Part shown: piece after piece, positions 1-24,133 of the stretch
How the letters are laid out: each line of letters begins with the position of its first letter
Position numbering within the stretch: the first letter of the stretch is position 1
Notes under the pieces: generated by a model
The model's input: only the letters and a program-made list of their open reading frames with translations
Told to the model about the DNA's origin: nothing
The model's database searches: none
Origin: Candidatus Nanohalobium sp.
Lineage (GTDB): Archaea > Nanohalarchaeota > Nanosalinia > Nanosalinales > Nanosalinaceae
NCBI GenBank assembly: GCA_042217545.1
Contig: JBDGSM010000007.1
Location: forward strand, 1 to 24,133
Length of the DNA: 24,133 bases
Direction: 5' to 3'
Made by a program: the position numbers and the translations under genes

Positions 1-59
1 TACTACCCGCCAGAAGAGCAGCAGGCCTTGAACCCGCGGAAGCGCTCAGATACGAGTGA
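1..59 (+). CDS. 3' end of an ABC transporter permease (FtsX/MacB-like), partial at window edge
   Basis: Frame starting at base 3 reads LPARRAAGLEPAEALRYE* (TGA 57-59), matching the typical MacB/FtsX C-terminus PAxRAxxLxPxEALRYE. Confidence 0.8.
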   Translation, partial: LPARRAAGLEPAEALRYE

Positions 60-90
60 AGAATAGAGAAAAAATGTGGAGACTGATTTT

Positions 91-1128
91 TCAGAAGTGT
101 TCGGTGAAACTCTCTGAAGCATCGACTACGAAATCCACTGCAGCCCGTACATCCGACATCTTAACGACCTCCGTCGCCGAATGCATGTTCCTCAGAGGTA
201 TCCCGATGGACCCTGTAGGGATCCCCTCCCTAACCAGCTCGATGTTGGCCGCATCGGTTGCCCCACCTTCCATCACTCCGCGGGAATAATCGTGATCACC
301 TTCTTCCGCAGTCTCAATAAGCCAGTTTCTAACCGTCTCAGGCGTGATAAGGCCTCTTCCCGATGACTGCACCATCTGTATATCGACTCCGCCACCGAGT
401 TCAAGCGTGGACTCATCAGGTTCAACACCGGGAATATCACCGGCAATACCTACATCTACTGCGAGAGCGATATCCGGATCAACCCTGAACGCAGAAGTCT
501 TTGCACCTTTAAGGCCCACCTCTTCCTGCGTGGAAAAGACCACGACCAGTTCGCCTTCACCATCGTACTCTTTCAGAGTCTCGATCGCTACAGTACAACC
601 GACACGGTTGTCCATGGCCATACTGGTGATGTATCCCTCACGTAGCTCAGCAGAATCTCTTTCAAAAGTTATAGTATCCCCGACCTTTACACCGGCGTCC
701 TCAACTTCGTCCTCATCTTCTGCACCAAGATCTATGAAAAGCTGTTTCTTCTCAGGCAGCTTATCCCTCTCCTCTTTATCCATAAGGTGAGGCGGCTTCA
801 TGCCAATAACACCGGTTACCTCGCCGGTTTCAGTATGGACAGTGACCCTCTGATTCATCAGAGACTGCAGAGTGACCCCTCCAACAACAGAGAACTTGAC
901 AAAACCTTCTTCAGTAATCCTCTTAACAGAAAGACCTATCTGATCCATATGAGCCGCAACCATCAATGTCTTGTCGCCAGAACCTTTCCTCGCGATCAGG
1001 TTGCCCATATCATCTTCCTCAACGCTCTCAGCATGCTCCTCAACTTTTTCACGGATTTTATCCCTAATTTCGCTCTCCTGGCCGGACACTCCAGGAGTCT
1101 CAACGAGTTCCCTAAGCAAACTCTTCAT
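91..1128 (-). CDS. M42 family metallo-aminopeptidase (TET/Frv-like)
   Basis: Motifs PGVSGQE, AAHMDQIG, DNRVGC, STQEEVGLKGA, AVDVG, GGATDA, MHS. Start moved to ATG 1128 (MKSLLREL) because the longer ORF overlaps the divergent fxsA. Confidence 0.93.
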   Translation of the reverse strand: MKSLLRELVETPGVSGQESEIRDKIREKVEEHAESVEEDDMGNLIARKGSGDKTLMVAAHMDQIGLSVKRITEEGFVKFSVVGGVTLQSLMNQRVTVHTETGEVTGVIGMKPPHLMDKEERDKLPEKKQLFIDLGAEDEDEVEDAGVKVGDTITFERDSAELREGYITSMAMDNRVGCTVAIETLKEYDGEGELVVVFSTQEEVGLKGAKTSAFRVDPDIALAVDVGIAGDIPGVEPDESTLELGGGVDIQMVQSSGRGLITPETVRNWLIETAEEGDHDYSRGVMEGGATDAANIELVREGIPTGSIGIPLRNMHSATEVVKMSDVRAAVDFVVDASESFTEHF

Positions 1129-1178
1129 GTAAAAACCTGCTGATTCAATCTTTAAATCTTCAACACAAAGGCCTTCAC

Positions 1179-1559
1179 ATGCTCCGATACCTGGTGCTGG
1201 CACTACTCGTACTTCCGTTCGTCGACCTATACCTGCTTATACAGGTCGCAGGAGTGCTAGGCTTCTGGAAGACGCTCGCCGCAGTACTGCTCACAGGCCT
1301 TGTAGGAGCCGAACTCATCAGGCGAGAAGGCAGACACGTCTTCATGAAGCTCCAGACCTCGGTAACAGGAGGAGAAATCTCCAGAAACTTCCTAGAAGGG
1401 GCAATACTCGTACTGAGCGGCCTCTTCCTCCTCAGCCCGGGATTCATCACGGACGCACTCGGATTCCTCCTGGTTCTAAGACCAGTCCGGGAAAGAGTGG
1501 TCGCCTACATCATGAACAACAGGAACAGCAACCTGCAGGTCGAAGTACAGCGCATCTAA
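1179..1559 (+). CDS. fxsA: FxsA family membrane protein
   Basis: LPFVDLYLLIQV...TGLVGAELIRREG...LLSPGFITDALG matches the FxsA pattern (PxxE/D..., LLxPGFxTDxxG). Confidence 0.88.
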   Translation: MLRYLVLALLVLPFVDLYLLIQVAGVLGFWKTLAAVLLTGLVGAELIRREGRHVFMKLQTSVTGGEISRNFLEGAILVLSGLFLLSPGFITDALGFLLVLRPVRERVVAYIMNNRNSNLQVEVQRI

Positions 1560-2227
1560 CCCCTGTCATACGACAGGACGACAGAAAACACGAACAATAC
1601 CAGGCCCAGGTGCATAGGAACGTCGTAACCGAACAGAGACGCTGAAATAACTGCCAGAATAAGCGCGCCGCCGCCACGGATATACCTCAGCGAAAGATTC
1701 TCCCTGTAAAGATGCGAAGCCAGATAAAGAGCCAGAACAGCAGTACCAGAAGTTAAAAGCGCCGGAACAACGTATTCAAGGCTCAGTGAAATACCTACGG
1801 AAGATCTCAGAGACAGAACCATTCCTGTAACTATTATAGCCGGTACGGAAAACTTCTCCGCCAGTTCAACATCCGCAAGCTTTGCAGAGATCGTCAGTAA
1901 CGCAAGGCCTGCAGCATAACGAAGCCTGGAAACATAGAACACCTGATCGAACACCGGTGCAATCAAAGCGACTGCAAGTGCTCCAAGAAGCAGCAATGGC
2001 GCAACCTGGTTCACCAGCGACAGAGCCTCCTCCCTGGAACCGGCCTCAGAGTACAGAACCGCTAAAGCACCTGCACCCGTGAAGATCGTAAGGCCTATCG
2101 AAATCACGTCCGAGAAAGTCGACACAGCATCAGTCACAAGCAGTGTAGCGAACACTCCGTCGACCAGAGGAAGACAGAGAACCAGCAAGAGCCGTTGGGC
2201 GCCGTCATCGAGTTGTTCCAGAACCAT
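1556..2227 (-). CDS. Polytopic membrane protein, probably haloarchaeal DUF5794-like
   Basis: About 7 hydrophobic segments; LCLPLVDGVF and IFTGAGALAV resemble the haloarchaeal LPLVDGIF...FGGSA motif (from recall). Confidence 0.65.
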   Translation of the reverse strand: MVLEQLDDGAQRLLLVLCLPLVDGVFATLLVTDAVSTFSDVISIGLTIFTGAGALAVLYSEAGSREEALSLVNQVAPLLLLGALAVALIAPVFDQVFYVSRLRYAAGLALLTISAKLADVELAEKFSVPAIIVTGMVLSLRSSVGISLSLEYVVPALLTSGTAVLALYLASHLYRENLSLRYIRGGGALILAVISASLFGYDVPMHLGLVLFVFSVVLSYDRG

Positions 2228-2262
2228 ACAGAAATACAGGCCTCGTCCGTGGTTCTGGGGCT

Positions 2263-2382
2263 TTAATTAAAGGTAAACTTAGCCCCAGACTTGAACATGG
2301 TAAAATTCTGTTTGAACCACATGGCAGCAGCTGTTCCAACTTCAGAAAGTTCAGATACTTCAGGCACAGCTGCCAGGTTCAT
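2263..2382 (-). CDS. Putative 39-aa small protein (MNLAAVPEVSELSEVGTAAAMWFKQNFTMFKSGAKFTFN)
   Basis: ATG 2382 to TAA 2263 fills most of the 197-bp gap; TTTTAA box about 25-30 nt upstream. No recognised homology. Confidence 0.35.
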   Translation of the reverse strand: MNLAAVPEVSELSEVGTAAAMWFKQNFTMFKSGAKFTFN

Positions 2383-2424
2383 CCAAACAGTACTTAGAAC
2401 CCGTAAGTTAAAAAACCACACGTA

Positions 2425-4497
2425 TTACTTGCTGTTCGCAACCTTCACCAGGGCTTCGGACAGTCTCTGAACCTTCTCCTGAAGATCCCTGAACTCATCC
2501 CGCGAAACATTTTCACCGGAATCAACCTCCTCCTCAACGCTCTCAACACGGTCGCTCACATCGGAAAAGTCGGAAACAAGTTCGTTAACCTGCTCCTCAA
2601 GCTTTTCAATATCCGAGGCCCTATCACCCTGCTCAGATCTCATTTCCTCGACCTCGCTCTTCACATCGGAGAGCTTCTCGAAGTTCTCAGTAACGTCTTT
2701 TTCAAGGCCTTCGACCTGGCCAGCGTTCTCATCCTGTTTGTCGTCCATCTGCTCCAGGCTATCCCAAAGCGAACGGATCTCCGACTTCGAAGCAAGCTGC
2801 TCCTGGGCCCTGTGCCTTGACTCAGCGATTCTGACGCCCATTTCCTCTCTAACATCGTCCAGGGCTCTCTCGAGCTCTGAGGCCTCGATCTTGTCCTCAA
2901 TCTCCGCTTTCTTGAACTCATCCCGGTCAAGCTTTCCTTCACGGAGCTCGTCAAGAGACTTCTCCTTCTCCTCGAACCGCTCCTCAAGCTTTTCAATATC
3001 GTTAAAGGCCTCCTCCAGTGCAGGAAGCACCTGTTCGACCTCCTCGGTCTTCTCCTCGATCTCGTCCTGCAGGCCATCAAGCTGATCTGAAAGCCGTGAA
3101 ACCCTGTCCCCAAGGCCTTCTATACTCTCTGCTTTTTGCTGGAACTCCTCCTGCGAGACCTTGCCCTGCTGTTCCTCACGGATCTCCTTCAGTACCTCGG
3201 CCTTCTCGTCCAGCTTTTCCTGGAGCCGGGAGACATCCGAGTCAACGTCCGAGATCTGGCCTTCAGCCGATTCTATCTCCTCCAGGGCCTCGTCATGCCT
3301 GTCCTCCAGCAGCTCCATGGAGTCCCAAAGCGAACGGATCTCCGACTTCGAAGCAAGCTGCTCCTGGGCCCTGTGCCTTGACTCAGCGATTCTGACGCCC
3401 ATTTCCTCTCTAACATCGTCCAGGGCTCTCTCGAGCTCTGAGGCCTCGATCTTGTCCTCAATCTCCGCTTTCTTGAACTCATCCCGGTCAAGCTTTCCTT
3501 CACGGAGCTCGTCAAGAGACTTCTCCTTCTCCTCGAACCGCTCCTCAAGCTTTTCAATATCCGAGGCCCTATCACCCTGCTCAGATCTCATTTCCTCGAC
3601 CTCGCTCTTCACATCGGAGAGCTTCTCGAAGTTCTCAGTAACGTCTTTTTCAAGGCCTTCGACCTGGCCAGCGTTCTCATCCTGTTTGTCGTCCATCTGC
3701 TCCAGGCTATCCCAAAGCGAACGGATCTCCGACTTCGAAGCAAGCTGTTCTCGAAGCCTGTGTTCTGTTTCAAGTATGCTTACGCCGATCTCGTCTTTCA
3801 GCTCATCCAGCTCCTGCTCAAGTTCGGAACCGTCGACTTTTTCACTTACAGAAAGTTTTTTCACGCGATCACGGATGCGGGAAAGCTCCACTATCTGGTC
3901 TCCACGCACCTGCTCAAGCCTCTGCTCAAACCGGGATCTGTCAACCTTTTCCTCGATCTCCGAATCCTTCAGCTCCCGTCCCATGTCAGAAAGGCTGTGA
4001 TCCATATCCTCCATCCGGGCCTTCAGCTTCTGGATCTCCTCCTCACGTTCCTGGAAAGTATCAATCCTGTCCTGTATATCCTCAACGTCCTCCTCAGTAA
4101 CTATAGAACTGTTTTCAATCTCCTCAATATCGTCGAAAGCAGCCTCAACCGTCGGAAGAAGCTCCTCAATCCGTTCACGTTTATCCTCGAACTCTTCAAC
4201 CATATCGCTGAACTCGTAATCCTTCGGCAGAGAACTGTAGTCAATCTTCAGATCGGAGACATCCTTTCTCAGGTCATTGACCTCTTCAAGAAGCTCCTCC
4301 TGCCTCTCCTTAACCTCACTATCCTCCGAGTTATCGTACTGATTCAGACGATATTCAAGCTTGGAAACTCGGTTCAGAAGCTCCTGGATCTTCGACTCCT
4401 CATCTCTGATCTCGCCTTCATACTTTTCGGCGTTATCCTTGGTCTCTGCGACCGCATCACTCACCGAGTCCTCAACGTCAGAGTTCAGCAATCCCAT
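2425..4497 (-). CDS. Long acidic coiled-coil protein with internal repeats
   Basis: About 690 aa of E/K/L heptads; no Walker A motif, no TM segment. ATG 4497 (MGLLNSD) chosen, with TTTAAA (4528-4533) about 30 nt upstream. Confidence 0.85.
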   Translation of the reverse strand: MGLLNSDVEDSVSDAVAETKDNAEKYEGEIRDEESKIQELLNRVSKLEYRLNQYDNSEDSEVKERQEELLEEVNDLRKDVSDLKIDYSSLPKDYEFSDMVEEFEDKRERIEELLPTVEAAFDDIEEIENSSIVTEEDVEDIQDRIDTFQEREEEIQKLKARMEDMDHSLSDMGRELKDSEIEEKVDRSRFEQRLEQVRGDQIVELSRIRDRVKKLSVSEKVDGSELEQELDELKDEIGVSILETEHRLREQLASKSEIRSLWDSLEQMDDKQDENAGQVEGLEKDVTENFEKLSDVKSEVEEMRSEQGDRASDIEKLEERFEEKEKSLDELREGKLDRDEFKKAEIEDKIEASELERALDDVREEMGVRIAESRHRAQEQLASKSEIRSLWDSMELLEDRHDEALEEIESAEGQISDVDSDVSRLQEKLDEKAEVLKEIREEQQGKVSQEEFQQKAESIEGLGDRVSRLSDQLDGLQDEIEEKTEEVEQVLPALEEAFNDIEKLEERFEEKEKSLDELREGKLDRDEFKKAEIEDKIEASELERALDDVREEMGVRIAESRHRAQEQLASKSEIRSLWDSLEQMDDKQDENAGQVEGLEKDVTENFEKLSDVKSEVEEMRSEQGDRASDIEKLEEQVNELVSDFSDVSDRVESVEEEVDSGENVSRDEFRDLQEKVQRLSEALVKVANSK
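2592..3747. repeat. Intragenic exact repeats: A (2592-2799 = 3540-3747, 208 bp) and B (2762-3000 = 3323-3561, 239 bp)
   Basis: Base-by-base comparison by eye. Offsets of 948 and 561 bp are both multiples of 3. Confidence 0.9.
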
Positions 4498-4541
4498 GGA
4501 ATCAAGTAACAATTACGTGAAGCCGAGTTTAAAATGTAACC

Positions 4542-5480: not shown

Positions 5481-5519
5481 AGAAAAAACTTGGATACAGA
5501 AGGTTAAAACCGTAAGGCC

Positions 5520-5723
5520 CTACTTCAGGCGGACAGCACTGCCACGTTTCTTATCAACGAACTCGAGTTTCTCCTCGCGTGCAAGCCATCCGATCGCCAT
5601 GTAAACCTTGGTGCCTGGGGCATCAACCCCCTTTGTAACCCCAGAAACAGAGGTCTCTCCGTTCTCATCAAGGAAATCCCAGACATCTCCTGCGACTTCA
5701 CCTATCGTTTCTTCCAAAATCAT
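5520..5723 (-). CDS. Small winged-helix protein (DUF2582-like)
   Basis: IGEVAGDVWDFL...MAIGWLAREEKL matches the IGxxAGxVW...AIGWLARExK signature; GGTGA lies directly before the ATG. Confidence 0.85.
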   Translation of the reverse strand: MILEETIGEVAGDVWDFLDENGETSVSGVTKGVDAPGTKVYMAIGWLAREEKLEFVDKKRGSAVRLK

Positions 5724-5820
5724 TCACCAGTAAACAGAGATTCCCCTTCCCGGTTTAAATTACCTTCCCGAAACCAGGACCAACCGAAAAACTATTAACT
5801 ACTGAAACATAACAACAATT

Positions 5821-6501: not shown

Positions 6502-6537
6502 CTACTAAAAACTTCACTGAAGAAACCTTTCTACACC

Positions 6538-6747: not shown

Positions 6748-6815
6748 CTCACCCATTACAGTCTCTAAGCCCTTTCTGGCGAGATAGCTGATCCTTGTTA
6801 GAAAAAATTTGTTAC

Positions 6816-6920: not shown

Positions 6921-7006
6921 ACAGTATTTTTACGTTTGCCAGGGTTAAATATGTATCTTCAAACATTCGTTTATTTTAAGTGGTTTCAGAACTACACTTA
7001 TACAAC

Positions 7007-7456: not shown

Positions 7457-7474
7457 GGCCTGGAAAAACTACTT

Positions 7475-8256
7475 TTACTCTGCTTCTTCATGGACAAGTC
7501 CTTCTTCGATCGCTGCCTGTATGTAGTCCTCCAGGACGCTGCTCCTGACATCTTTCACGTCTCCGGAGTTGCGTAGCCAGTACTGGAGTTCCGCCTGGAC
7601 TTTGCCGTCTTCAAGGCCTTTCAGCATTACTTTTGGTTCTGGATTGGTCATGACTTCTCCCTGTTTGTTCGCCGCCTCTTTCAAGAGCTCCGCGTGCTCT
7701 TCCTGTTTCAGCGTATCGAGCGGGATCTCCAGGCTGGTCTTTGTCTTTGTTCCTTTCGTGAAGTTTTTGACTGGGCTGGTTACGAGGGTGCTGTTCGGTA
7801 CGACAAGTTTCTCGCTTGAGTAACCGTTCAGGACTGTCGCTCTCAGCTTGATCTCCTTTACGACACCTTCGTAGTCGCCTGTCTTGATGTAGTCCCCTCT
7901 GGTGAAAGGGTTGTCAAGATGGATGAAAGTGCCGCCCACGATACTGGCGACCTGATCCCGCATGCAGAACCCTACTGCTACAGTAAGTGCAGCCGCGATA
8001 GCACCTATTATGGTTGCAAGTTCCCGAATTCACCGGCCTGGAGAGCAACAGTAAAGGATACGAAGAGTCCTAGCACGCCCACAAGATTTCCTAGAGACTG
8101 TACAGCCTTCGAATCCGCTCTCCTTCCTACAAGCTTCCTGGTGAGAGGTATCAGGAGCAGCCTGGTAAGTGCTACGCCAATTATTAAAGCAATGAAGAAC
8201 CTGACAAGCTGTATGTAGGCGCTTGTTCCGTTAAGGAGTGGGATTTCAAATACCAT
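7475..8256 (-). pseudogene. mscS: Small-conductance mechanosensitive channel, split by a 1-nt frameshift near 8020
   Basis: N-terminal TM part (8008-8256) and MscS beta domain (PFTRGDYI..GVVKEIKLRATVL..VVPNS) join if AACTTGCA is read AAC-CTT-GCA, giving GNL-ATIIGAIAAALTVAVGF. Confidence 0.8.
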
Positions 8257-8301: not shown

Positions 8302-8835
8302 ATGTTTGAATCGAACCGTTACCAGGTCCGGGAGAAAACCCTGTCAAAGGGCGATCAGCACAAGGTCTACGAGGAAGACGATCTTATTCTCTACTCCAGG
8401 ATCGAGGACAAGGATCTCCGGGAGGACGTGGTCTTCGTGGACCAGGACGACAATACCCGGCTTGTAGTCACGACCAATCCTAAGCTTGATGTCCCGGTTT
8501 CCTACAGCATAATAGATAGTGAAAAAGACGAAGTTGTTGGAGGCCTCAGAAGAGAATGGGGATCTCTAAGACATCGCTGGAAACTGATAGCAGGCGACAA
8601 CAGCATAGTTGGAACGATAAAGGAGGACCATCTCTCGCTCTCACTCATCAGAAGGTTCATAACAACCGTCCTGCCCTTCAGATACGACATGGTAGATGAA
8701 GACGGCGAACACCTGGCGGACATCGATGGAGAGTTCAACATGAGAGATGTCTACAACGTTAACATCCACAGCGACCTGGATCCCCGGCTAGTGCTTGCTG
8801 CAGCGCTCGTAATGGACTTCATCGAGACGAAATAG
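8302..8835 (+). CDS. LURP-one / scramblase (Tubby C-like) family protein
   Basis: YQVREKTLS...Y.I.D..GE..A.IDG.F..RDVY beta-barrel pattern and C-terminal DPRLVLAAALVMD helix. Confidence 0.8.
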   Translation: MFESNRYQVREKTLSKGDQHKVYEEDDLILYSRIEDKDLREDVVFVDQDDNTRLVVTTNPKLDVPVSYSIIDSEKDEVVGGLRREWGSLRHRWKLIAGDNSIVGTIKEDHLSLSLIRRFITTVLPFRYDMVDEDGEHLADIDGEFNMRDVYNVNIHSDLDPRLVLAAALVMDFIETK

Positions 8836-9967
8836 CCGCAGCCAACTTCTCGCGCGTCAAGATCTCCAGATCACTTGAAGAAGCAGTATCAGACCTCGAC
8901 ATACCGGCAACGTAGTCTACATCGTATTCTTCAGCCATCGAGACAAGATCACTATCAACCTCGCCATCCAGAACCACTGCAAAGGCCTCACCCTGCGACT
9001 TGCGCAAAGCCTCCTCCACTCTATCCAGTGGCGCCTTCTCAATCACTTTAAGATCCTCATCCAGTACGTTCACAGCCCTGGTCGCAACAAGGCCTTCCAG
9101 CGCCTCAAGTATACCGGATCTCAACTTTTCATCGACCTCTTCATCAACTTCGGTCGAGTTAGCGTACTTTACAGGCCTTTTATCCCTGAGAGCCTCGTGA
9201 GCCTCCTGCTTGGACAGTTCCTCTACCTCCTTCCCTTCAGGAGCTCTCGCCACGTAACGGGGCTCGGCTTTCTCCTTCAGCTCCTCCAGGATAAGATCGC
9301 CGCCCCTGTCGCCGTCCAGGAACGCGGTAATATCCTTATCCTCCGCTATCTTCGAGATGCCCTCGGGAACGTCCGTGCCATCGATCGCCACAGCGTTCTT
9401 CAAACCATGCTTCAGCAGGTTAACCACATCGGCCTTACCCTCCACCAGAACGACCTCATCCTCGCGTTCGGCGTCAGGCCCGGCAGTGAAACCCCGGAAA
9501 TCAGATACCTGGTTCTCACGGACCTCCTCCTTTATCTCATCCTCAAGCTCCGCCTTCGAAGGCGTCTCCTGCTCGATATCATCCAGTAACTGTTTCGCAC
9601 GCTTCACAATATAGTCTCTCTTCGACGTACGGTCATCCCTGATTCTCTCAACAGTCAGATCAGCGTTCGTAGGCCCGACACGCTCTATCGTCTCCAGAGA
9701 AGCACCAAGCAACGCGGTATCGGTCGCATCAAGAGAAGTAGGAAGCTCAATAGTAGCCTCGGTCTTACCATCCTTCCTCTGAATCTCAACATCCATACGG
9801 CCGACCTTCCCGGTCTCCTTCAACTCACGAAGGTCCAGCTCCTCGCCGAGAAGGCCCTGAGTCTGTCCGAATATCGCACCGACGATATCCGACTTCTCGA
9901 TCACTCCGCCTGCCTCAAGACTTGCCTCTATAACATAACTTACCTGATCCTGTGCCACCTTACCCAT
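8819..9967 (-). CDS. dnaG: Archaeal DnaG-type primase (exosome-associated)
   Basis: GVIEKSDIVGAIFGQTQGLLGEELDLREL..GKVGR; TOPRIM VEGKADV and FLDGDRGGDLIL; GKEVEEL. Confidence 0.95.
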   Translation of the reverse strand: MGKVAQDQVSYVIEASLEAGGVIEKSDIVGAIFGQTQGLLGEELDLRELKETGKVGRMDVEIQRKDGKTEATIELPTSLDATDTALLGASLETIERVGPTNADLTVERIRDDRTSKRDYIVKRAKQLLDDIEQETPSKAELEDEIKEEVRENQVSDFRGFTAGPDAEREDEVVLVEGKADVVNLLKHGLKNAVAIDGTDVPEGISKIAEDKDITAFLDGDRGGDLILEELKEKAEPRYVARAPEGKEVEELSKQEAHEALRDKRPVKYANSTEVDEEVDEKLRSGILEALEGLVATRAVNVLDEDLKVIEKAPLDRVEEALRKSQGEAFAVVLDGEVDSDLVSMAEEYDVDYVAGMSRSDTASSSDLEILTREKLAAAISSR

Positions 9968-12235: not shown

Positions 12236-12310
12236 ACAAGTCTAGTTTTGGAGGCCTCCGTAAAAAAGCCCTTCGGTGCAGAAGAAAAAATCAGGGGAAA
12301 AACAAGGCTC

Positions 12311-12912: not shown

Positions 12913-15900
12913 TTACCCTGCGAACTGTCCAAGGCCTGTCTGGCGCTGATCCTTGCCGAACAGGCTCTGCAGGGTCTTGTTCAGCATCAGCACCTGCTGG
13001 CGCAGATACGGCGTAATCTCATACTCATTGATGATCTCCTTCGACGGCTGCATATACTTCTTGATAGTTCCCTCAGAAATCGTCAGCAGCACCTTGCCCC
13101 CGCACTCCGGACATTCCGCGGTCTCCTTGCCTGAAGGCGCGATCGTCTGCTGTGTCATCGGAACACGCCTGAACTTCTCGTTACAGTCAACACAACGCAT
13201 CTCCTGGCTGGAAAAGCTTCTCAGGTTACCTCTGATATCCGGAAGGAAGTGCTTCTGTAGCAGGAGCTCCGCGACCTTGTCCTCATCCACCGCTTTCAAT
13301 TTCTCACCAAGGCCTAACTGCGCAGAGGTCTTCTCACTCATCTCATCCAGCGTAACGTACTCCGACTGATTAGGCCCGTTCTCAACACTGGTCGATTCAT
13401 GAGTGAAACCATGCCTGTACGGCTCATCACTGTGAACGATGTCCTCGCCGATCTGGATCTCGTTGTCCAGGTTCCACGGCTTCTTGTACTCCTGCGTCTC
13501 CTCGTAGAAACCGAGAGGATATTCATCCACCGTTTCGATAGCCCAGGCCTCATCATCGATCTCGTCAGCGTTCAAAACAGTTGAAAGGATCAGAGGAGCG
13601 TCCATCGTGTTGTGAGCGAATACAGGATGCGGGCCGCAGAGGAAGTTCTGGTTCCCCGGCACTTCCAGATCATACACGTAGTCATCGCCGTAATCCCTCT
13701 TCTCCACCTCTTTAACACGTTCAACAGATATATCTCCCCTAACCGGCTTCTCCAGCGAGTCAAGGCCTTTACCGTAAAGTTCCTCTACTCTCTGTTTGGA
13801 GGCAGTTTTCATCCTGTCGTTCTTCCTGTCATTGGAGAAAGACTGCTTTATCTCCTTGTAGTCGGCGCCGTCGGCTCTCAGAGCTTCTCTTCCTTCATCC
13901 AGCACGTTCCATAGAGGCCAGTAAGGATCCTTGTCAGTCCATTCCGAGTAGAGGACCTCCCAGGTCTCGCCCGCCTTCCGGGTTGAAGACTTGAAGCCCA
14001 GTTTCCTGACAAGTAGAGAGAGCTGTGTGGCCATCTCTCCACTCTTGGTGTAGAGCTTGGAGAAACCTTTCTCCTCGTAGATAGAGCCGTCTCCAGCCCG
14101 GTAGGCCTGTACGAACTCCTCTACTTTCTCTTCTTCGGCGCCGAACACGAACGAAGGAATGCTTTTTTCGTCGAACTTCTCCCTTTCAAGACCTAGCTCT
14201 TCCAGCGCCCGCATCAGGACCGCAGGAGTATCGACCCAGTAGCACTTCTTTTTTCCTTCTCTGTCGTCTATATGAGTTCTCGGCTCCACACCTGTCAGCT
14301 CACGTATGCAGTGCTCGACGTCTTCTATCACATCTTCATCTGTATTTGTTATCCTTCCCCTGTCCAGGTCGCCCTCTGAAAGCAGGTAGCCCAGCAGGCG
14401 GTAAAGCTCGGCCGAGTTCTCGATGAACCGGTCTACTGGATCTGTATTAGCTCTCAGCCTTACCTTGCAGGAAGGTACGACTCCCACATCCTTGTAGAAC
14501 TCCAGAGGTGCGTCCCTTCTACCTGTCCTGTACCTGTAGATATTGTGTTCTCCGTACTCCTCTTTCACTTCCTCTCCTGCCTCGGCCTTGATCTCCGACT
14601 CCAGTTCCTCGAGCTCTTCCTCAGGAACCTTCACGTAGCATTCATCGTCCGGCAGCAACTCGAAGAGATCGATCTCATCCTCAAGGCCTTCAGCCTCCAG
14701 CTCAGGGTTCGAAGGAACCACTATACAGTCTCCTTCCTCAAGCTCCCTGACAGGCCTTGCCTCTATCTCATCTCCTTCAGTAACGAAAACACTGTGATCG
14801 CCGGTTACAGAGATCTCTCCACGGGAAGTACTGACCTCGAACACTTCCTTATCGTTCTCGTGCCTAATCAGAGCGGAGACATCCCTGAACTCGACGTCGC
14901 CCGAATCTTTATCAAACGAGACAGCCTTGATATCTTCATCAAAGCTTCTATTTACCTCAAACCCATCTTCACGCGTTTCAAAGCCTTCTTCCTCCAGCAC
15001 TTCGTCTATAAGCTCATCCGCTCTCGGAGCCTTGATCTCTCCGTTCCTCTTGACAACAAGCCTCGTATCCCTCGTAATACTCCTCGCTCCCGTCATGTCC
15101 GGGAGATACTTCCTTGAGAAGTTCAGTAATCCGTCCATCATCAAAAGGATAGCGTCCTCGTCGCCGTCAGCGTTCCTCCTCTTCGCTGCATGCCAGTAAG
15201 GATGAGCGTAGATGCCTTTGGCGTCCGTGAAACCTATTATACGGCCCACGGTTCCTCCGGACGTGTGAGGTGCCAGACCTATCACAAGGGAGCCGACAAG
15301 ATCCTGTTTCTCCTCGACATCGTAGTAAGAATCAAGGCCGTAGAACTCCTCCAGCAGCTCATCGACGTAGTTCGCAACTCTCACGAAGTAATCGGAGGCC
15401 TTCAACGTGTTCTCGCCATCAGGTATGACCAGATCCTGAGGCTTCAGCTCCAGAACCTGATCCTCGTTCTCTAGTTCTTCTCCGTTCACGTCCTGTTTGT
15501 AGCCGATCTCCCGCAGCTTCTCGACGGATACATTGATCTCTTTCGGCTTGAAATGGGTCATAGGAATGTCCGAGGCATCGTATCTTACTGTGCCGTCCTT
15601 GTTCGCGTATAGATCGTATTTCTCACGTAGAAGGCCTTTCTCGATAGGTTCCACATGCTTGTGCTTCGATGTCATCCCTCTGAAGGATTTCAGGAGTTCT
15701 GGAGGCTCTCTCATGCCAAGGTTCTCCAGGGCGTCGTCCATCATCTTCCTGACATCGATATCGGTCTCCCTGTACCTGTTCAGCCAGGTACCGCCGCAGT
15801 TACCGCATTTATCCTTTTCCTCCGTGTATTCCTTGCCGCAGTCGCTGCAGACCCAGACAGCTTCCGCAGGAGCGTCGCATTCACGGCAGAAGCTGTAATG

Positions 15901-17883
15901 CGTGATCTCACCACACTCCGTACATCTATTATGAATTATCTGCTCCCGTACAATTCCCTGCTCTCCATGCATTGTCTGCTTGTAGGAAGCGGACAGGTTT
16001 CTCATACGTCCGCCCTCCTGCTTGCCGCAGGGGAACAGAAGCTGTGGATCGCCGTTCAGGGTCCTGCGCTCGGCTTTCTCAGGCCTCCCCATACGTCCTC
16101 CAAGGTAATGCGGTGCCTGATCCCTGACCTCTATACCTGAAACATCCTCTATGAACCCCGGTATATCTGAGGCCTTCTCAACTTCCTCAAGTCTTTCAGT
16201 ATTGTCGTTTTCAAGGTCGAGAACTTTTCTCATCACCGCCATATCGTTTTCCCTGAGCTCGATCTCGCCTTCTTTCTCCCTGTGCTGTACAAGTATATCT
16301 TCCAGGGCCTTTTTCGCCTTCGAGTTCCATTCCTCGTTGCGCAGGGCCTTGTACAGGGCCTTGAACTTTGCTGGAGAGGTCTCTCTCCAGTGGTACGTCC
16401 ACTTGGGATGTAGAGGCATTCCGAGAGCTTCGGATATCTTGAAAGCTTCCTCCGGCGTCGGATCCCGTTCCTCGAAGCTTTTGCCAAGCTTTACATCCTG
16501 CTCTTTCAGCTCCTTATCCAGTTCTTTCTCCCACCATTCGCTTACGTATGGTGAGGGCAGCAGTTTCTTACCGTTCTCCACGAACTCGCCATACGTTACA
16601 AGTATATCGCCGAGGAACAGTATCTCCTCTATATCGTTCTCCAGTTCCTTTGCTTCTTCCCTCGTATCGACTTTTACCACATCTCCGTTCTTCAGACGGG
16701 CTACAGGCGGATGGATGCTGTCGCACGGGCTCCCGACCGTTGCCTTGCCCGGGTACTCCACTTTCATCTGGGTTCCGATCGCGAGGAACCGCTCTGTGAT
16801 CTCCATCGTCGCCGGGTGGAAGCTGGTCGCTGCGAGGCCGTTGGTCCTGCTGTGACCGTACCTCAGGCGGAAACCTCCTTTCCTCCCGGGATGTCCGAAG
16901 ACAGGCCTTCCAGCGGTTAGGGAACCGAGATACTTGTCGCTCGGCGTGTACTTGTCCTTCTCCTCATCGTCCTCTTCTTCATCGTCGCTTCCGGACGAGT
17001 GGAGCTCTTTCTGCAGGTCAAGATATTCTCCTATCCATTCCCAGTGCTCCAGGCCGAACTCCTCGCCCCATTTCTCGATACGTTTCTTGATCTTCGGAGC
17101 TTTCAGCGGTAGGCCGTCCAGGTAGACCAGGCAGAGGCCTCCACGGATCTGGTTCGTGTCAACGCGGTCGAGGTCCTTGTAGTTCGAGACGTCCAGGTCC
17201 TCAGTAGGGCTTCCTGTGACCTCGACAGGAACGTTCTCGGCAATCATCTCTGTCTCCTCCCTCTCCGGCGAATACTGCTTCGCCGTAACCCTGTTAATAT
17301 AGTCATCAACTTCTGTAGAATAACGTTTCACGACAGTATCTGAAGGCTTGAAACGGTCAAGGCCTACGCCGATCCTGACGTAATCGGAAAGCAGGACGGA
17401 CATGGCGCTCGCAGTACCGCCCGCGGATCTGATAGGTCCTGAGTAGTAGACCGCCAGGTACTTACTTCCATCATCGTTCTCACGTACACGGATGTCTCCA
17501 ATACCTTCCAGCGGCGCAGTCGTGATACCCCCCGTCATGTAAGAGACACCTACACGAATACCTGCGTCGCAGGCCTTCTCCACGTCGTCGAAGTCGTAGA
17601 AGTTTCCCTCCGCGATCTCCCGAGCAATAGAGAACGAAACCCTCTCGTCGTTCTTCCCGTACTCGTCCTCAAGCTCCCTGATCCTAGCGGCGACGCCCTG
17701 ATCCTCCAGCTCCGGGAACATCGCCGCGATAACCAGCGAAGAGGCCTTCTCAGGCAGATCTGTGGCTACAGGGATGTCTACCTTGTCTTCAGGATCCTTG
17801 GACTGATCTCTCGCCTTCTCAGCTACATCGTAGGCCTTTTCAGTTTCCTGTGATATTTTTCCAAAGTATTCCTCCGTTTTCAT
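12913..17883 (-). CDS. polC: DNA polymerase D large subunit DP2, intein-containing (about 1165 aa after splicing)
   Basis: APLEGI, GPIRSAGGTA, GGFRLRYG, GRMGRPEKA, GLAPHTS, HAAKRRNxDGDED, MDAPL and Zn-finger clusters. Confidence 0.97.
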   Translation of the reverse strand: MKTEEYFGKISQETEKAYDVAEKARDQSKDPEDKVDIPVATDLPEKASSLVIAAMFPELEDQGVAARIRELEDEYGKNDERVSFSIAREIAEGNFYDFDDVEKACDAGIRVGVSYMTGGITTAPLEGIGDIRVRENDDGSKYLAVYYSGPIRSAGGTASAMSVLLSDYVRIGVGLDRFKPSDTVVKRYSTEVDDYINRVTAKQYSPEREETEMIAENVPVEVTGSPTEDLDVSNYKDLDRVDTNQIRGGLCLVYLDGLPLKAPKIKKRIEKWGEEFGLEHWEWIGEYLDLQKELHSSGSDDEEEDDEEKDKYTPSDKYLGSLTAGRPVFGHPGRKGGFRLRYGHSRTNGLAATSFHPATMEITERFLAIGTQMKVEYPGKATVGSPCDSIHPPVARLKNGDVVKVDTREEAKELENDIEEILFLGDILVTYGEFVENGKKLLPSPYVSEWWEKELDKELKEQDVKLGKSFEERDPTPEEAFKISEALGMPLHPKWTYHWRETSPAKFKALYKALRNEEWNSKAKKALEDILVQHREKEGEIELRENDMAVMRKVLDLENDNTERLEEVEKASDIPGFIEDVSGIEVRDQAPHYLGGRMGRPEKAERRTLNGDPQLLFPCGKQEGGRMRNLSASYKQTMHGEQGIVREQIIHNRCTECGEITHYSFCRECDAPAEAVWVCSDCGKEYTEEKDKCGNCGGTWLNRYRETDIDVRKMMDDALENLGMREPPELLKSFRGMTSKHKHVEPIEKGLLREKYDLYANKDGTVRYDASDIPMTHFKPKEINVSVEKLREIGYKQDVNGEELENEDQVLELKPQDLVIPDGENTLKASDYFVRVANYVDELLEEFYGLDSYYDVEEKQDLVGSLVIGLAPHTSGGTVGRIIGFTDAKGIYAHPYWHAAKRRNADGDEDAILLMMDGLLNFSRKYLPDMTGARSITRDTRLVVKRNGEIKAPRADELIDEVLEEEGFETREDGFEVNRSFDEDIKAVSFDKDSGDVEFRDVSALIRHENDKEVFEVSTSRGEISVTGDHSVFVTEGDEIEARPVRELEEGDCIVVPSNPELEAEGLEDEIDLFELLPDDECYVKVPEEELEELESEIKAEAGEEVKEEYGEHNIYRYRTGRRDAPLEFYKDVGVVPSCKVRLRANTDPVDRFIENSAELYRLLGYLLSEGDLDRGRITNTDEDVIEDVEHCIRELTGVEPRTHIDDREGKKKCYWVDTPAVLMRALEELGLEREKFDEKSIPSFVFGAEEEKVEEFVQAYRAGDGSIYEEKGFSKLYTKSGEMATQLSLLVRKLGFKSSTRKAGETWEVLYSEWTDKDPYWPLWNVLDEGREALRADGADYKEIKQSFSNDRKNDRMKTASKQRVEELYGKGLDSLEKPVRGDISVERVKEVEKRDYGDDYVYDLEVPGNQNFLCGPHPVFAHNTMDAPLILSTVLNADEIDDEAWAIETVDEYPLGFYEETQEYKKPWNLDNEIQIGEDIVHSDEPYRHGFTHESTSVENGPNQSEYVTLDEMSEKTSAQLGLGEKLKAVDEDKVAELLLQKHFLPDIRGNLRSFSSQEMRCVDCNEKFRRVPMTQQTIAPSGKETAECPECGGKVLLTISEGTIKKYMQPSKEIINEYEITPYLRQQVLMLNKTLQSLFGKDQRQTGLGQFAG
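13609..15081 (-). mobile_element. Intein with LAGLIDADG homing endonuclease (491 aa, residues 935-1425 of DP2)
   Basis: N-terminus SITRDTRLVV, block B VTGDHSVF, LAGLIDADG motifs LLGYLLSEG and AYRAGDGSI, block F VYDLEVPGNQNF, C-terminus AHN with +1 Thr. Confidence 0.93.
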
Positions 17884-17884
17884 C

Positions 17885-18682: not shown

Positions 18683-18848
18683 CAGAACTGTTTCACCTCC
18701 GAACTTCTGAACTCTAAGACTCCTCGAGTCTTCCCCGGCCAGCAACCATAGGTTGCGGGAGTTCGACCATCATAATACATGGCTCGAGAGAGCCATTTCT
18801 TGCGTGCCAACTGAGCGTAACCAGTTGTCATCAGAACTGTTTCACCTC
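18679..18848. mobile_element. 128-bp hairpin-rich insert (18700-18827) flanked by a 21-bp direct repeat; holds a 49-aa ORF at 18682-18831(-)
   Basis: TCATCAGAACTGTTTCACCTC at 18679-18699 and 18828-18848; four hairpins with 6-7 bp perfect stems inside. Mobility is inferred. Confidence 0.6.
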
Positions 18849-20639: not shown

Positions 20640-20671
20640 ACAAAGATTCTCCCCCGTTGATTAAGGCCTTT

Positions 20672-21880
20672 CTACCCGATGTAGAACTTGTCCTCTACCA
20701 TTTCTTCAAGCCTTCCACAGATATTATCCGAAAGGTCTACGCTGATCTGTCGAGTCCTGCCGTAACGTCCCTTGCTGATGACTTTGGCATTGATAACACC
20801 AAGCATGTCGAGCTCCGAGATAAGGCCTGAAACTCTTCTCTGCGTAAGTTCTGAAACATCTACTGTCTTGCAGAGGGCCTTGTACTCGCTGTAGACATCT
20901 CCTGTAGCGATCTCGTCCTCGTCCTCCGTCATATCAAGTATTGTGTAAAGGACTAGCTTCGAATGCTTCGGCTGGCTTCTTACAGTCTCGACCACTCTGT
21001 CACGCTCGATCTTGCTCTGTGCCTTGTTCACATGTTCTTTCTCTATTCTTTCTACTTCGGAACGCTCGGCCAGTTCACCTGCGACACGTAGCAGGTCGAG
21101 AGCTCTTCTTGCGTCCCCGTGCTCCTGTGCAGCTAATGCAGAACATTTCGAGATAACTCCGTCCTGGAGAGCGCCTTCGACAAAGGCCTTGTCAGTCCTG
21201 GCTCTCAGGATCTCTCTCAACTCGATAGCGTTGTAAGGAGCGAAAATTATCTCCTCCTCGGAAAGCGAGGACTTGACTCTTGAATCCATGTAATCAGTGA
21301 AGTTGAGATCGTTGCTGATACCTAAAATGGAGACCTTGGTCTCGTCCAGATCGTCGTTGATCCTGGTAAGGTTGTAAAGGAACTCGTCTCCGACCTTCTT
21401 CACGAGCGCGTCGATCTCGTCCAGCGCGATAACTACGACTCCGCCCTGGTCCTGTAAGGCCTCGAAGAACCTGTTGTAGATCTCATCTGTAGGAAGGCCT
21501 GTGCTAGGCACTTCTTCACCTAATTGACGAGCAAGTTTAGCTAGTAAACGGTATTCAGTATCTGCAACCTTCTTCATCTTGCAGTTGATGTATAGTATGT
21601 TCAGATCTATCTCCTGCTCATGTGCAACATCTTGAAGCTCATCTGTAACATGTTTTACGACCAGTGTTTTCCCTGTACCTACAGATCCGTAAAGGAAAAC
21701 ATTGCTAGGATCATTGCCTTTCAGTGATGGCGCTAGAATAGATGCCAGATCATTGATCTGTTCATCCCTGTGAAGGATGTTATCCGGTTTGTAGCTGGTG
21801 GTCAGAGCGTCCTTGTTTTTGAAAACAGAATCCTTATCGATGTAGTTAGAGAACATCGACTTCAGATTACTCTGACTCAT
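20672..21880 (-). CDS. cdc6: Orc1/Cdc6 replication initiator
   Basis: Walker A GSVGTGKT, Walker B LDEID, HGDARRALDLL, C-terminal wHTH ELDMLG..SKGRYGRTR; GGAGG SD upstream. Confidence 0.97.
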   Translation of the reverse strand: MSQSNLKSMFSNYIDKDSVFKNKDALTTSYKPDNILHRDEQINDLASILAPSLKGNDPSNVFLYGSVGTGKTLVVKHVTDELQDVAHEQEIDLNILYINCKMKKVADTEYRLLAKLARQLGEEVPSTGLPTDEIYNRFFEALQDQGGVVVIALDEIDALVKKVGDEFLYNLTRINDDLDETKVSILGISNDLNFTDYMDSRVKSSLSEEEIIFAPYNAIELREILRARTDKAFVEGALQDGVISKCSALAAQEHGDARRALDLLRVAGELAERSEVERIEKEHVNKAQSKIERDRVVETVRSQPKHSKLVLYTILDMTEDEDEIATGDVYSEYKALCKTVDVSELTQRRVSGLISELDMLGVINAKVISKGRYGRTRQISVDLSDNICGRLEEMVEDKFYIG

Positions 21881-21931
21881 TCGACCCCCTCCGTAAAGTC
21901 AGAATCCAGAATCATCTTTGTCCCCGTATCA

Positions 21932-22410
21932 TTTCTACTTGAAACCAAGGTTTATAATCCCTTTCCAATCGAAGTCGGGGTGATTTGGACCCCCACCCCC
22001 TGATTTCGTGTGGAAAACTAATCTGCCCAAAGTTTCTGAGTATAACAGTGTTATATAGTTATAACGTTGTTATACAGTATAGCAGTGTTATATCCGAACT
22101 CCCAGCTCAGAAGCTTTCTTCCACTTGAAACAAAGGGGTGGGCGGCTTCTTCCACAGTAGCTCGAGATCACTGAAACAGCATATTTCCAGCACAGCAGAA
22201 ATCCTTTCCGGCATACGGCTACTTCCGCGAGCAGGCCTACCTGTATAACGCCGTTATACTTTTCTCCTCGGGTCGCAGGAAAAAATCTGGCCGACCGATC
22301 TCCCGCTCCCGAACTCAGAATTTTGTTTTCTCCAGTCGAAGGCCTCAGCTTCCTTCCTCGCATCTACTTCTCGAGCAAAGGCCTTTTCCACCCCCTGATT
22401 TCATGTGGAG
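21932..22410. other. Replication origin (oriC) with ORB elements
   Basis: ORB-like boxes: 22119-22142(+) TTCCACTTGAAACAAAGGGGTGGG; 21990-22015(-) TTCCACACGAAATCAGGGGGTGGGG; 22388-22410(-) CTCCACATGAAATCAGGGGGTGG; mini-ORB 21932-21950 TTTCTACTTGAAACCAAGG. Directly upstream of cdc6, with flanking genes pointing away. Confidence 0.88.
22041..22258. repeat. Four TATAAC-N3-GTTATA palindromes (22041-55, 22060-74, 22078-92 with one mismatch, 22244-58)
   Basis: Read directly from the sequence. Confidence 0.8.
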
Positions 22411-22697
22411 ATTTGGTTAACATTCCTGTCTCGGTGACAAATTTCCTGCCTTTCGAGATATGTTTGTGTAATCCTTGGCTTTTCTTGTAAGAATTTCTGG
22501 AACTTGATATCTGCTCATAAAGAAACTGATTTTCTTGGTATAAACTTGAGCTCTTCTTTATGGAAACCCTTGTTCTATGTATGCACCCATTTAAAACAGC
22601 TGTTTGTACTGAAGAGGAAGTCTTATTTTGTAAAGATGCCTGAGATCTTTATCTGTTTGCAGGATTTTTTATAGAGATATCTTCTCCAATATGAGTT

Positions 22698-22982
22698 ATG
22701 GAGAGGGAAAACTTCGGTTCAACGAGAGGCAGGTTCGAGTCCGTTGAGACGGAGGAAGCTGAAGCTGAGGCCTTTGTACCTCCTGAACTTCCTGTGGAGA
22801 TCGAGCCGGATATGGAGTTGCTTAATCTTCTTGACACTGCTCGGGGCAACCTTGGAAGGCTGTACAGCATGTCCGAGGATCTCGAGAATCCAGCTCTCTA
22901 CTATGGGCCTGCGCTGATGCAGGAGGCGGCTTCGAGCTCCAGGATCAAGGAAATTATCAAAGGGGAGAAAGCCGAGGCCTGA
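22698..22982 (+). pseudogene. Truncated Fic-family gene (N-terminal domain only)
   Basis: AFVPPELP...A..NLGRL......NP.L......EA.SSSRI matches the Fic N-terminal domain; the ORF ends before any HPFxDGNGR motif. Confidence 0.72.
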
Positions 22983-23062
22983 AAAACCTGAAAGGCCTCT
23001 AAACCGAGTTGTTTCACCCTTTGAAACAAAGGTATTTAAACCGTTTCAACTGTCATGAAACC

Positions 23063-24133
23063 ATGAAGAAACAGATTCTGGCAGCAGCGATAGTTTTCAC
23101 GTTCCTTGTCTCCTCCACGGCAGCGGCTTCAAACAGTTCAGCAACGCAGAACATCACGGAAAATATCTCGGACACCGCTACTGAGAAACCTGACATAGTT
23201 TTCTTTTACTCGCCGACCTGCCCACACTGCGACCACGTAGAAGAGTACATTCAAGGCCTGAACCGCTCAAAGTTCAACCTGAAGAAGTACAAGGCCTCAA
23301 CTCATTCAAAACTGTTCTCGGCCTACATACAGAACCACTCAGTACCGGCGCGGTTTGCGGGAGCGGTACCCACAGTCTTCATCGATGAAAAATCCGCGGT
23401 CGGCTCCAAAAACTCCATACAGCTCATCAAAAAGACTTTAAACAGCGAGGATAGAGGTGAAAAGCAGGAAAGCAGTTCTACTGGTCAAGATGCAAAAGGA
23501 GAGGTAGGGAAACAGGAAAACGCTCTCTCCAAGCTTGGAATCATAGGATTGGCGGGTCTGGCGGCGACCGACTCCGTGAATCCCTGTGCGTTGGCTGTCC
23601 TGCTGATTCTGATCGGCTCGATCATGTCCGGCAACCTGGAAGACCAGTTGAAGGCCTTGAAGTCAGGAGCAGCATTCACCGCAGGAATCTTCGCCTCATA
23701 CCTCACCATGGGCGTCTTACTGGTGTTCGGCATTAAATCAGTCCAGAAAGCAACCGCTTTGAATATTGACGGAGTCTACCTGTTCTTCGGCGGCTTCGCA
23801 GTCCTGATAGGTCTTCTCAATCTGAAGGACTGGTACAGCCATGGCCTCGGAGGCTTCGCAATGGAAGTACCGTTCTCCTGGAGGCCACAAATGAAGTCCT
23901 ACCTCAAAAAAGTTACAGGCCTGGGAGGAGCTTTCCTCACAGCTCTGATAGTCTCACTTTTCCTCCTGCCCTGCACATCCGGACCATACTTCGTAGCAGG
24001 AGGAATACTATCCAACACAGCCTGGAACCTGGCAATCCCTCTCCTGATACTCTACAACGCTATATTCATCGCACCGATGCTCCTGATAATCACAGCACTC
24101 TACCTCGGGGCGACAGAAGTCGAAAAAATCCGG
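23063..24133 (+). CDS. Thioredoxin/glutaredoxin-domain plus CcdA/DsbD-like membrane protein, partial at window edge
   Basis: Signal peptide MKKQILAAAIVFTFLVSSTAAA, FFYSPTCPHC, VPTVFI, then TM domain with DSVNPCA and LPCTSGPY. Absent from the ORF track because there is no stop in the window. Confidence 0.88.
   Translation, partial: MKKQILAAAIVFTFLVSSTAAASNSSATQNITENISDTATEKPDIVFFYSPTCPHCDHVEEYIQGLNRSKFNLKKYKASTHSKLFSAYIQNHSVPARFAGAVPTVFIDEKSAVGSKNSIQLIKKTLNSEDRGEKQESSSTGQDAKGEVGKQENALSKLGIIGLAGLAATDSVNPCALAVLLILIGSIMSGNLEDQLKALKSGAAFTAGIFASYLTMGVLLVFGIKSVQKATALNIDGVYLFFGGFAVLIGLLNLKDWYSHGLGGFAMEVPFSWRPQMKSYLKKVTGLGGAFLTALIVSLFLLPCTSGPYFVAGGILSNTAWNLAIPLLILYNAIFIAPMLLIITALYLGATEVEKIR

Follow-up and report, generated by a model that had tools for sequence, protein, structure and literature searches.

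Why a genome should fill with one short palindrome is a question three decades old, familiar from HIP1, the highly iterated palindrome of cyanobacteria, and it is raised again by a contig of the archaeon Candidatus Nanohalobium sp. (JBDGSM010000007.1 of assembly GCA_042217545.1). The whole contig, 24,133 nucleotides read on the forward strand, is referred to here as the window; it is contig C67 of the genome that holds it, G000. The word in question is the hexamer AGGCCT, a HIP-like, DNA-level word that is iterated throughout the genome. Its best correlate among relatives appears, from sequence comparison, to be a pair of genes resembling the addB and addA genes of a bacterial helicase-nuclease, and AGGCCT may be a palindromic Chi-like signal of that archaeal AddAB-type enzyme, a reading to which we give somewhat less than an even chance. 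The trait is on, off or changed among close relatives with genomes of 1 Mb, in which the usual methylases are missing.

Abundance of AGGCCT in the window and the genome

AGGCCT occurs exactly 85 times on the + strand of the window (23..23922, first start 23, last start 23917; the palindrome is unstranded), or 3.5 per kb, against 5.7 occurrences expected from base composition. The near-variants AGGCCC, AGGCCA and AGGCCG occur 9, 5 and 4 times on the same strand, 18 in total. A first-pass annotation of the window had put these figures at about 85 (about 3.5/kb, about 6 expected) and about 18, and exact counting reproduces them. Seventy-four sites lie within 23 genes and use all three frames; the other 11 lie outside genes or straddle gene ends. 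The Arg-Pro, xAG-GCC-Txx and Gly-Leu frames hold 14, 28 and 32 sites, compared with 2.9, 4.9 and 3.8 in 1000 synonymous-codon shuffles of the 23 genes (shuffled total: mean 11.6, maximum 23). The eight positions claimed as intergenic (2238..2243 and the sites starting at 12252, 12855, 20664, 22233, 22340, 22379 and 22993) are all outside these genes.

The genome G000 contains 3,699 copies in 1,032,751 bases, about one per 280 bases. They are found on 82 of 82 contigs, with densities ranging from 1.3 to 5.9 per kb, and AGGCCT is the most frequent hexamer of the genome (15.2-fold over an order-0 and 5.1-fold over an order-2 Markov expectation). The coding frames, taken from a purpose-made codon-model gene caller (87% coding, some genes missed), hold 528, 1045 and 1536 sites versus 126, 208 and 262 in 20 synonymous shuffles, a 4-6-fold excess in each frame. 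Intergenic DNA carries 546 sites where 26 are expected (about 20-fold), and spacers of up to 250 bases carry 251 where 9.1 are expected. Since spacers provide a test without codons, the enrichment there is independent of codon choice. In the Arg-Pro frame AGGCCT is a di-codon in its own right, which makes a di-codon-preserving shuffle blind to it.

Codon or amino-acid preference, or an assembly artefact, might be proposed as the source, given that the majority of sites lie inside genes. This is hardly conceivable in view of the excess over synonymous shuffles in each frame, of that in spacers, of its recurrence in seven assemblies from four genera, and of the contigs of two public runs, which cover the window near-identically. 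Rather than being confined to one reading frame, the excess extends over all three in both the window and G000. The earlier claims that the word appears in different reading frames, that codon choice alone is unlikely to explain it, and that it is a HIP1-like palindrome maintained at the DNA level in a nanohaloarchaeal lineage agree with these genome-wide Markov, frame and spacer counts.

Distribution among related genomes and the addB-addA pair

The 41 genomes counted fall into 7 that are AGGCCT-rich (2,478-4,489 sites) and 34 that are poor (32-579). The rich genomes (G000, G001, G002, G003, G023, G019 and G022) represent four genera, and all belong to one family of 25. A quick tree of DP2, the large subunit of DNA polymerase D, from 32 genomes places six of them together with the poor genome G021 in one clade (SH-aLRT, the Shimodaira-Hasegawa-like approximate likelihood ratio test, 99), while G019 stands apart, beside the poor G014 (88). 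Mean protein identity among G000, G003, G019 and G021 is flat at 60-63% and does not resolve the order in which the word was gained and lost. Close homologues of one relative's protein carry the label Nanohaloarchaea in their sources. These four were the genomes read in sequence, in full for G000, G019 and G021 and over the first 360 kb for G003. The highest residual ratio among poor genomes belongs to G010 (579 AGGCCT, control 371). A search for viral relatives found none. Population variants in three runs (40 of about 2,584 variant rows) come from mixed organisms and give no guidance on the word.

The pair lies outside the window in G000 (C17), where an addB-like gene (855 aa, 41792-44359) is upstream of an addA-like gene (910 aa, 39063-41795); the adjoining genes of G019 encode 854 and 913 aa. 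The B protein carries a C-terminal PD-(D/E)XK domain, and the A protein a UvrD helicase followed by a second C-terminal PD-(D/E)XK domain. This is the gene arrangement of AddAB, in which an SF1A helicase and an inactive helicase lie side by side, each with its nuclease at the C terminus. An AlphaFold model of B built with 79 homologues (pLDDT, the predicted local distance difference test, 86.9; pTM, the predicted template modelling score, 0.63) matched Bacillus AddB first in PDB (3u44_B, expectation value 1.9e-13, template modelling score 0.48-0.51), then AdnA and RecC; the top structural matches were 3u44_B, 3u4q_B and 4cej_B. A single-sequence fold (pLDDT 35) was discarded. The B subunit is predicted from this model to have the AddB/RecC fold. 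Atlas neighbours of its N-terminal half include Halo_UvrD_like and ADDB_N clusters, which are of value as a lead only.

Both genes, with A at full length (open frames of 901-933 aa), are present in all seven rich genomes. Among the 18 poor genomes of the family, 11 (70-99% complete) have no match to either gene, three (G021, G015 and G010) have an A gene cut to about 760 aa, and four (G014, G005, G011 and G013) have a full-length A. The difference in full-length A, 7/7 versus 4/18, gives a Fisher p of 7e-4, with the reservation that kin are not independent. The AddA nuclease is lost in G021 and G015, which are single-contig genomes, 99% and 96% complete; in G021 the A gene breaks off before the nuclease, at 759 aa, and addB and addA are separated by a ParE-type module. 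The AddA tree contains a clade of nine (SH-aLRT 100) made up of six rich genomes, all with full-length A, and three poor ones, all truncated; G019, G005 and G014 join next (99), and G011, G013 and other families fall outside. Regarding gene order, the separation of addB from the nuclease-less addA of G021 is by a ParE-type toxin-antitoxin pair (L157:8661-14031), and in G011 about 1.6 kb separates the two genes.

Of the options raised at first pass, the recombination signal thus has the best correlate, a pair with full-length A in every rich genome; it is weakened by the full-length A of the poor G005, G011 and G013. Two broader surveys gave less. Subtraction of genes present in G000 or G003 and in G019, and absent from the single poor genome G021, left 97 genes, and no convincing reader of AGGCCT was found among the 96 G019 proteins scanned; the pair was missed by this procedure because G021 keeps both genes. 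A metagenome scan with the AddA alignment gave 80 loci, nearly all generic UvrD, and the three inspected had no excess word.

AGGCCT as a possible Chi-like signal

Chi-type stop signals are known from bacteria. As a full-length AddAB-type enzyme occurs in every rich genome, AGGCCT is a likely candidate for its stop signal (Chi site). The enzyme would engage the DNA at a double-strand break and resect both strands from there. Resection would go on until AddB, through its inactive helicase domain, recognises a short word in one of the strands; this word is probably AGGCC or the complementary GGCCT. Reading of the word would attenuate the AddA nuclease and leave a 3' tail for recombination. A palindrome, being the word on both strands, could serve forks and breaks from either side. 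Sites might build up because selection favours repair, or because repair itself is biased: a copy without the word would be resected beyond the position in question and then restored from one that bears it. Loss of the AddA nuclease would end this force, and the arrival of a GGCC restriction system would oppose it.

In Bacillus, Chi is the pentamer AGCGG, read by AddB, which attenuates the nuclease, and the Chi-binding residues of AddB in motifs Ia/Ib have been named (PMC3321194). Chi of Escherichia coli is strongly polarised and occurs once per 5 kb, and Chi is reported to be scarce in acquired islands (PMC8022716). The chance that a Chi site is recognised is about 0.2, and sites within a cluster may depend on one another in being read (PMC5443536). 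AGGCCT, too, is enriched in the core genome and sparse in acquired DNA, as judged from one island of G019: this island, which carries an integrase and looks recently acquired, has a 13.4-kb gap without the word.

Anatomy and spacing of the word

Where the protein permits AGGCCT, 73-79% of positions in G000 are occupied (Arg-Pro 531/705, [KEQ]-Ala-[FYCW] 491/619, X-Gly-Leu 1542/2115), and the looser class [KEQ]-Ala-[LS] is occupied at 525 of 1057 positions. Arg-Pro occupancy is 238/268 in the fetched part of G003, 295/522 in G019 and 16/323 in G021. Occupancy is 0.72-0.81 whatever the conservation class. Odds ratios for the coincidence of sites at orthologous positions between rich genomes (about 62% protein identity) are 1.5-11, but frame 1 is confounded by the Leu/Ser codon class and occupancy is near saturation. 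The word has also shifted amino acids in rich genomes. Relative to expectation, the Arg-Pro dipeptide stands at 1.43, 1.58 and 1.16 in the set of three rich genomes made up of G000, G003 and G019, and at 0.80 in G021. In orthologues of G000 and G021, Gly-Leu is found opposite Gly-[IVMF] 182 times versus 108 in reverse (control 1213/1212), and [KEQ]-Ala-x opposite [KEQ]-[STGV]-x 84 times versus 29 (control 1665/1607).

At positions where the protein forbids the full word, near-matches are favoured only with a mismatch at the first or last base. Gly-Pro, for example, is encoded with GGGCCT at 5.0 (G000), 10.5 (G019) and 6.5 (G003) times expectation and at 0.8 in G021; one outer-mismatch class is flat in G000 (0.91), and inner mismatches in rich genomes remain near the G021 baseline. 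The unit in G019 behaves as a pentamer: AGGCCN and NGGCCT are each enriched 3.2-3.6-fold, AGGCCT 12.2-fold and other NGGCCN words 0.45-1.2-fold, so that the palindrome equals the product of its half-sites (3.5 x 3.5 = 12-fold). The palindrome is enriched beyond the half-site product in G000 and G003.

A second AGGCCT is disfavoured within about 50 bases. Occupancy rises from 0.35-0.49 below 15 bases to about 0.65-0.84 at 60-400 bases, and the density of site pairs falls to 0.36-0.47 at 6-15 bases and recovers by about 60, while other palindromes and hairpin-forming pairs are flat. Beyond 60 bases occupancy is independent of gap size, which would fit the low recognition of Chi and the non-independence of its clusters. 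Forward half-sites of G019 are occupied at 0.45 when alone, at 0.32-0.37 beside a half-site of the same orientation and at 0.25-0.30 beside one of the opposite orientation. No peak of spacing periodicity was found at 8-120 bases, where the power never exceeded 3.3 times the median.

These features could also be produced by a dimeric protein that sits on double-stranded AGGCCT with a footprint of about 50 bases, such as a chromatin organiser or protective factor. Sites would then persist through selection or protection-biased gene conversion, and AddAB would be no more than a mark of recombining lineages. The perfect palindrome with its obligatory GGCC core and graded outer bases, the depletion of close second sites and its indifference to half-site orientation all speak for such a protein. 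No such binder was found among the 96 G019 proteins that G021 lacks and that have a counterpart in G000 or in the fetched part of G003, and the truncation pattern of the AddA tree would be left unexplained. The coiled-coil histone or a paralogue was found in 24 of 24 genomes of the family, and no residue of its histone fold proved diagnostic; a DUF2582 winged-helix gene is present in the poor G018 and gives only a weak match in the rich G003. Phasing of A/T and G/C (W/S) with a period of 10 bases and TT at -3/-4 flank AGGCCT, but they flank control words too, including those of G021. On balance we regard a duplex-binding protein as unlikely, though credible enough to be kept in view.

Several candidate readers and sources were set aside. 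The DUF2582 winged helix and the coiled-coil histone do not discriminate rich from poor genomes; DnaG occurs in rich and poor genomes alike, 20 of the 24 in the family; the island integrase of G019 sits in a motif-poor island; and a Methyltransf_11 protein has a close homologue in one of three rich genomes tested. The idea of a nucleosome dyad was dropped, the phasing amplitude being -0.073 around control words in G021 and -0.057 to -0.088 around AGGCCT. An extended consensus, TTnnAGGCCTnnAA, proved to be mostly generic context, and avoidance of mRNA hairpins as the source of the spacing gap was rejected on the flat controls. Three further observations may be recorded here. The 10-base W/S phasing occurs genome-wide at synonymous positions of coding sequence in G000, G003, G019 and G021, is strong in the last, and is consistent with histone-type wrapping. 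Two large surface-layer-like genes of G003 (1049 and 952 aa; 168-174 kb, L192) lack AGGCCT over stretches of about 2.8-2.9 kb, which very high expression might explain. A VRR-NUC nuclease with a weak AbrB/MazE-like C-terminal match is encoded in G019 (L110:17298-17867) and G000 (C30:4185-4754); these two proteins are 65% identical, and identity to that of G021 is 43%.

A second word in a related genome

The poor genome G014 has a full-length pair close to that of G019. In a word screen of coding loci (6-24 kb per genome), GGACC/GGTCC was found 105 times in 12 kb of G014 (L026, L049, L211 and L233), 57 being expected (z 6.3). AGGCC scored z 14-18 in four of four rich genomes used as controls, and no 5-mer exceeded z 4.3 in 13 genomes without the B gene; the next scores were AACCG in G015 (z 6.0) and GGAGA in G005 (z 5.7), the latter being high in other genomes too. 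Genome-wide, G014 has 1162 AGGWCCT versus 683 of a reversed control, the only ratio above 1.0 among 41 genomes; AGGSCCT occurs 231 times, and CGGWCCG 633 times versus 97-155 in four kin. The core pentamer GGACC/GGTCC is about 4-5-fold enriched over kin. The G014 word fits a change of specificity of the pair. As a separate observation, AAC-N-GTT occurs 30 times in the G010 loci (28.6 kb), 8.7 being expected, which may be a local repeat.

Weighing the Chi-like reading

A number of results weigh against AGGCCT as a Chi-like signal. Sequence searches do not link B to Bacillus AddB (the profile had no match), B has no match among NCBIfam models, and A scores 161.9 bits with the addA_Gpos model, whose cut-off is 707.65. 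Full-length A persists in the poor G005, G011 and G013; the G005 pair is even the sister of the G019 pair on the AddA tree, and the truncation in G010 is no clean loss, as this genome has a second, partial addA bearing the nuclease domain. The B gene also occurs in seven genomes of other families, all AGGCCT-poor, and neither these nor G005, G011 and G013 showed a comparable word in the 6-16 kb screened. Alignment of B among relatives gave no residue pattern clearly separating rich from poor genomes. Polarity, which only half-sites can show because AGGCCT is palindromic, is slight in G019: 1.05 on the G-rich and 0.99 on the other strand (z 1.9-2.2, about 7%), despite replication skew. A density of 3.6/kb is far above that of E. 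coli Chi. Spacing exclusion that ignores orientation is not predicted by reading of one strand, and the two words GGCC and GGWCC, palindromic and pseudo-palindromic, suit a dimer on double-stranded DNA, which the G014 word also fits.

Another gene correlates about equally with richness. A HerA/VirB4-like ATPase associated with a giant surface protein is present in six of the seven rich genomes and two of the 18 poor ones, with a similar Fisher p, which raises the possibility that AGGCCT is a tag for DNA uptake or transfer, spread by biased transfer through this protein. In cyanobacteria HIP1 correlates with type IV secretion proteins (PMC13756078). The ATPase was, however, not found in the rich G022 (97% complete, 70 contigs), its closest type occurs in the poor G015, and it is present in nine of 16 poor genomes of other families; the 50-base scale of redundancy would also be short for an uptake fragment. 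A transfer tag is thus improbable. The protein itself exceeds 8,000 aa and ends in the ATPase, and a further copy of the ATPase gene comes after it (G000:C9:32587-61985; 252-283 kb in G019).

For the Chi-like reading, the full picture would be that nanohaloarchaea possess a bacterial-type AddAB with its own palindromic, unpolarised Chi, which has driven itself to one per 280 bases, rewrites proteins, decays with loss of the AddA nuclease and can change its word (AGGCC to GGACC); we consider this plausible and rather more doubtful than not. If it is true, Chi-controlled break repair extends to archaea, where no described Chi sequence was found; a repair signal can be strong enough to change amino acids; and there is a route to highly iterated palindromes free of methylases. 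Because nature supplies loss-of-function alleles of this two-gene candidate and, in one case, a change of word, the cause is testable.

Methylases, repair genes and GGCC restriction

The first-pass annotation had also suggested methylation-directed repair around GGCC and a co-occurring C5 or N4 methyltransferase, and neither is supported by the gene content. C5 methylases (PF00145) were found in one of seven rich genomes. PF01555 (N4/N6) gave no shared match beyond weak matches to a THUMP-type gene, which we read as tRNA-methylase-like and which is present in poor genomes too; a type III-like Mod occurs in G019. PF02086 (D12 class) was found in none of five genomes, and a motif scan of six-frame open reading frames in G000, G019 and the G003 part found no shared DNA amino-methylase. 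MutS was found in none of five genomes tested. NucS is present in five of five tested, rich and poor alike, and was rejected as the cause.

The GGCC systems that do exist belong to two poor genomes. G017 and G021 carry an M.HaeIII-like C5 methylase (expectation value 1.8e-95 to 1dct) adjoining an NgoPII-family endonuclease (L001 and L002). The endonuclease is found in these two of the 41 genomes, which have just 97 (G021) and 73 (G017) AGGCCT sites, and G021 avoids GGCC (0.41). ACGT is avoided in G021 as well (0.32). On the classical explanation of HIP1 (the Elhai model), the core would be marked by a GGCC-type methylase and the flanks written by methyl-directed repair; this would here need a methylase that was unrecognised in our searches or is supplied by the host. 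Near-misses at the first and last base are as in HIP1 (PMC4390886), one Synechococcus has CAGGCCTG as an alternate HIP (PMC5861425), and for a nanohaloarchaeon and its host methylase export has been suggested, although in the opposite direction (PMC11001535). Given the lack of a shared methylase and of MutS in these searches, and the few sites in the genomes with GGCC systems, this route is very improbable.

Other features of the window

The window encodes cdc6, DP1, DP2 with an intein, and acidic proteins; scans of it gave no tRNA or Rfam match. The DP2 gene (12913..17883, - strand), also used here as the phylogenetic marker, has 17 AGGCCT sites, about 4 in the intein stretch (~13608-15078, about 2.7 per kb) and 13 in the exteins. 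The intein is present in G017, G007, G020 and G032 and absent at the same position in G001 and G002. The non-coding stretch upstream of cdc6 (21881..22697), which holds the sites at 22233, 22340 and 22379, is a likely replication origin. It has repeats at 21996 (-) and 22119 (+) that we take to be like origin recognition boxes, a similar box near 22385-22405 and an AT-rich repeated stretch.

A DnaG-type TOPRIM gene (8819-9967) was not found in the single-contig G021 and G015, nor in any of seven genomes of family f4. An acidic coiled-coil protein of 695 aa (2425-4512) has an internal duplication, with ~2700-3010 recurring at ~3270-3660. A small mechanosensitive-channel-like gene (7475-8256) is apparently in two open reading frames (8008-8256 and 7475-7963).

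Comparison with known systems

No paper on an AGGCCT excess or a Chi sequence in nanohaloarchaea was found, supplements and subscription papers not being covered, and AGGCCT is absent from the main texts of Elhai 2015 (PMC4390886) and of two methylome papers on nanohaloarchaea (PMC11001535, PMC10266531). New here are the fold match, the AddA truncation on the tree, the G014 word, the half-site product rule, the GGCC restriction system of two poor genomes, and the results on orientation and polarity, which speak against Chi.

Restriction-modification systems of the HaeIII/NgoPII (GGCC) and StuI (AGGCCT) types use the same letters, but here a GGCC system accompanies avoidance. Alcanivorax SK2 methylates AGGCCT (PMC12128166).

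Uptake sequences of Pasteurellaceae and Neisseriaceae are dense, protein-altering, asymmetric words of 9-10 bases. AGGCCT is likewise dense and protein-altering, but it is a six-base palindrome, and no uptake receptor was identified.

With HIP1 (GCGATCGC) and alternate HIPs, including CAGGCCTG, AGGCCT shares the palindrome, an excess of 12-20-fold, presence in all frames and spacers, outer-base near-misses, and words that are on, off or changed between relatives (PMC4390886, PMC5861425). It differs from HIP1 in that neither a cognate methylase nor MutS was found, and perhaps in its spacing, which showed no clear periodicity at 8-120 bases. It is also tenfold denser than CAGGCCTG of Synechococcus PCC 6312, which Xu et al. 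give at 0.37 per kb (PMC5861425). AGGCCT would work like Chi or a HIP and is assigned to neither, since half-sites were nearly unpolarised and searches gave no cognate methylase.

Like AddAB of Bacillus subtilis and RecBCD of E. coli, the archaeal pair would be a helicase-nuclease encoded by two genes, with a single UvrD motor and a PD-(D/E)XK nuclease in each subunit. The archaeal B is about 300 residues shorter than Bacillus AddB, 10-11% identical to it, and has no N-terminal Walker A motif that could be seen. The likeness to Bacillus AddAB and its Chi lies in the predicted AddB fold of B and in a short, over-represented word that is pentamer-like in G019 and scarce in an island. Unlike Chi of Bacillus and E. 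coli, AGGCCT belongs to an archaeal host, is palindromic and nearly unpolarised, occurs at 3.6/kb and reshapes proteins, and its Chi activity is here a proposal.

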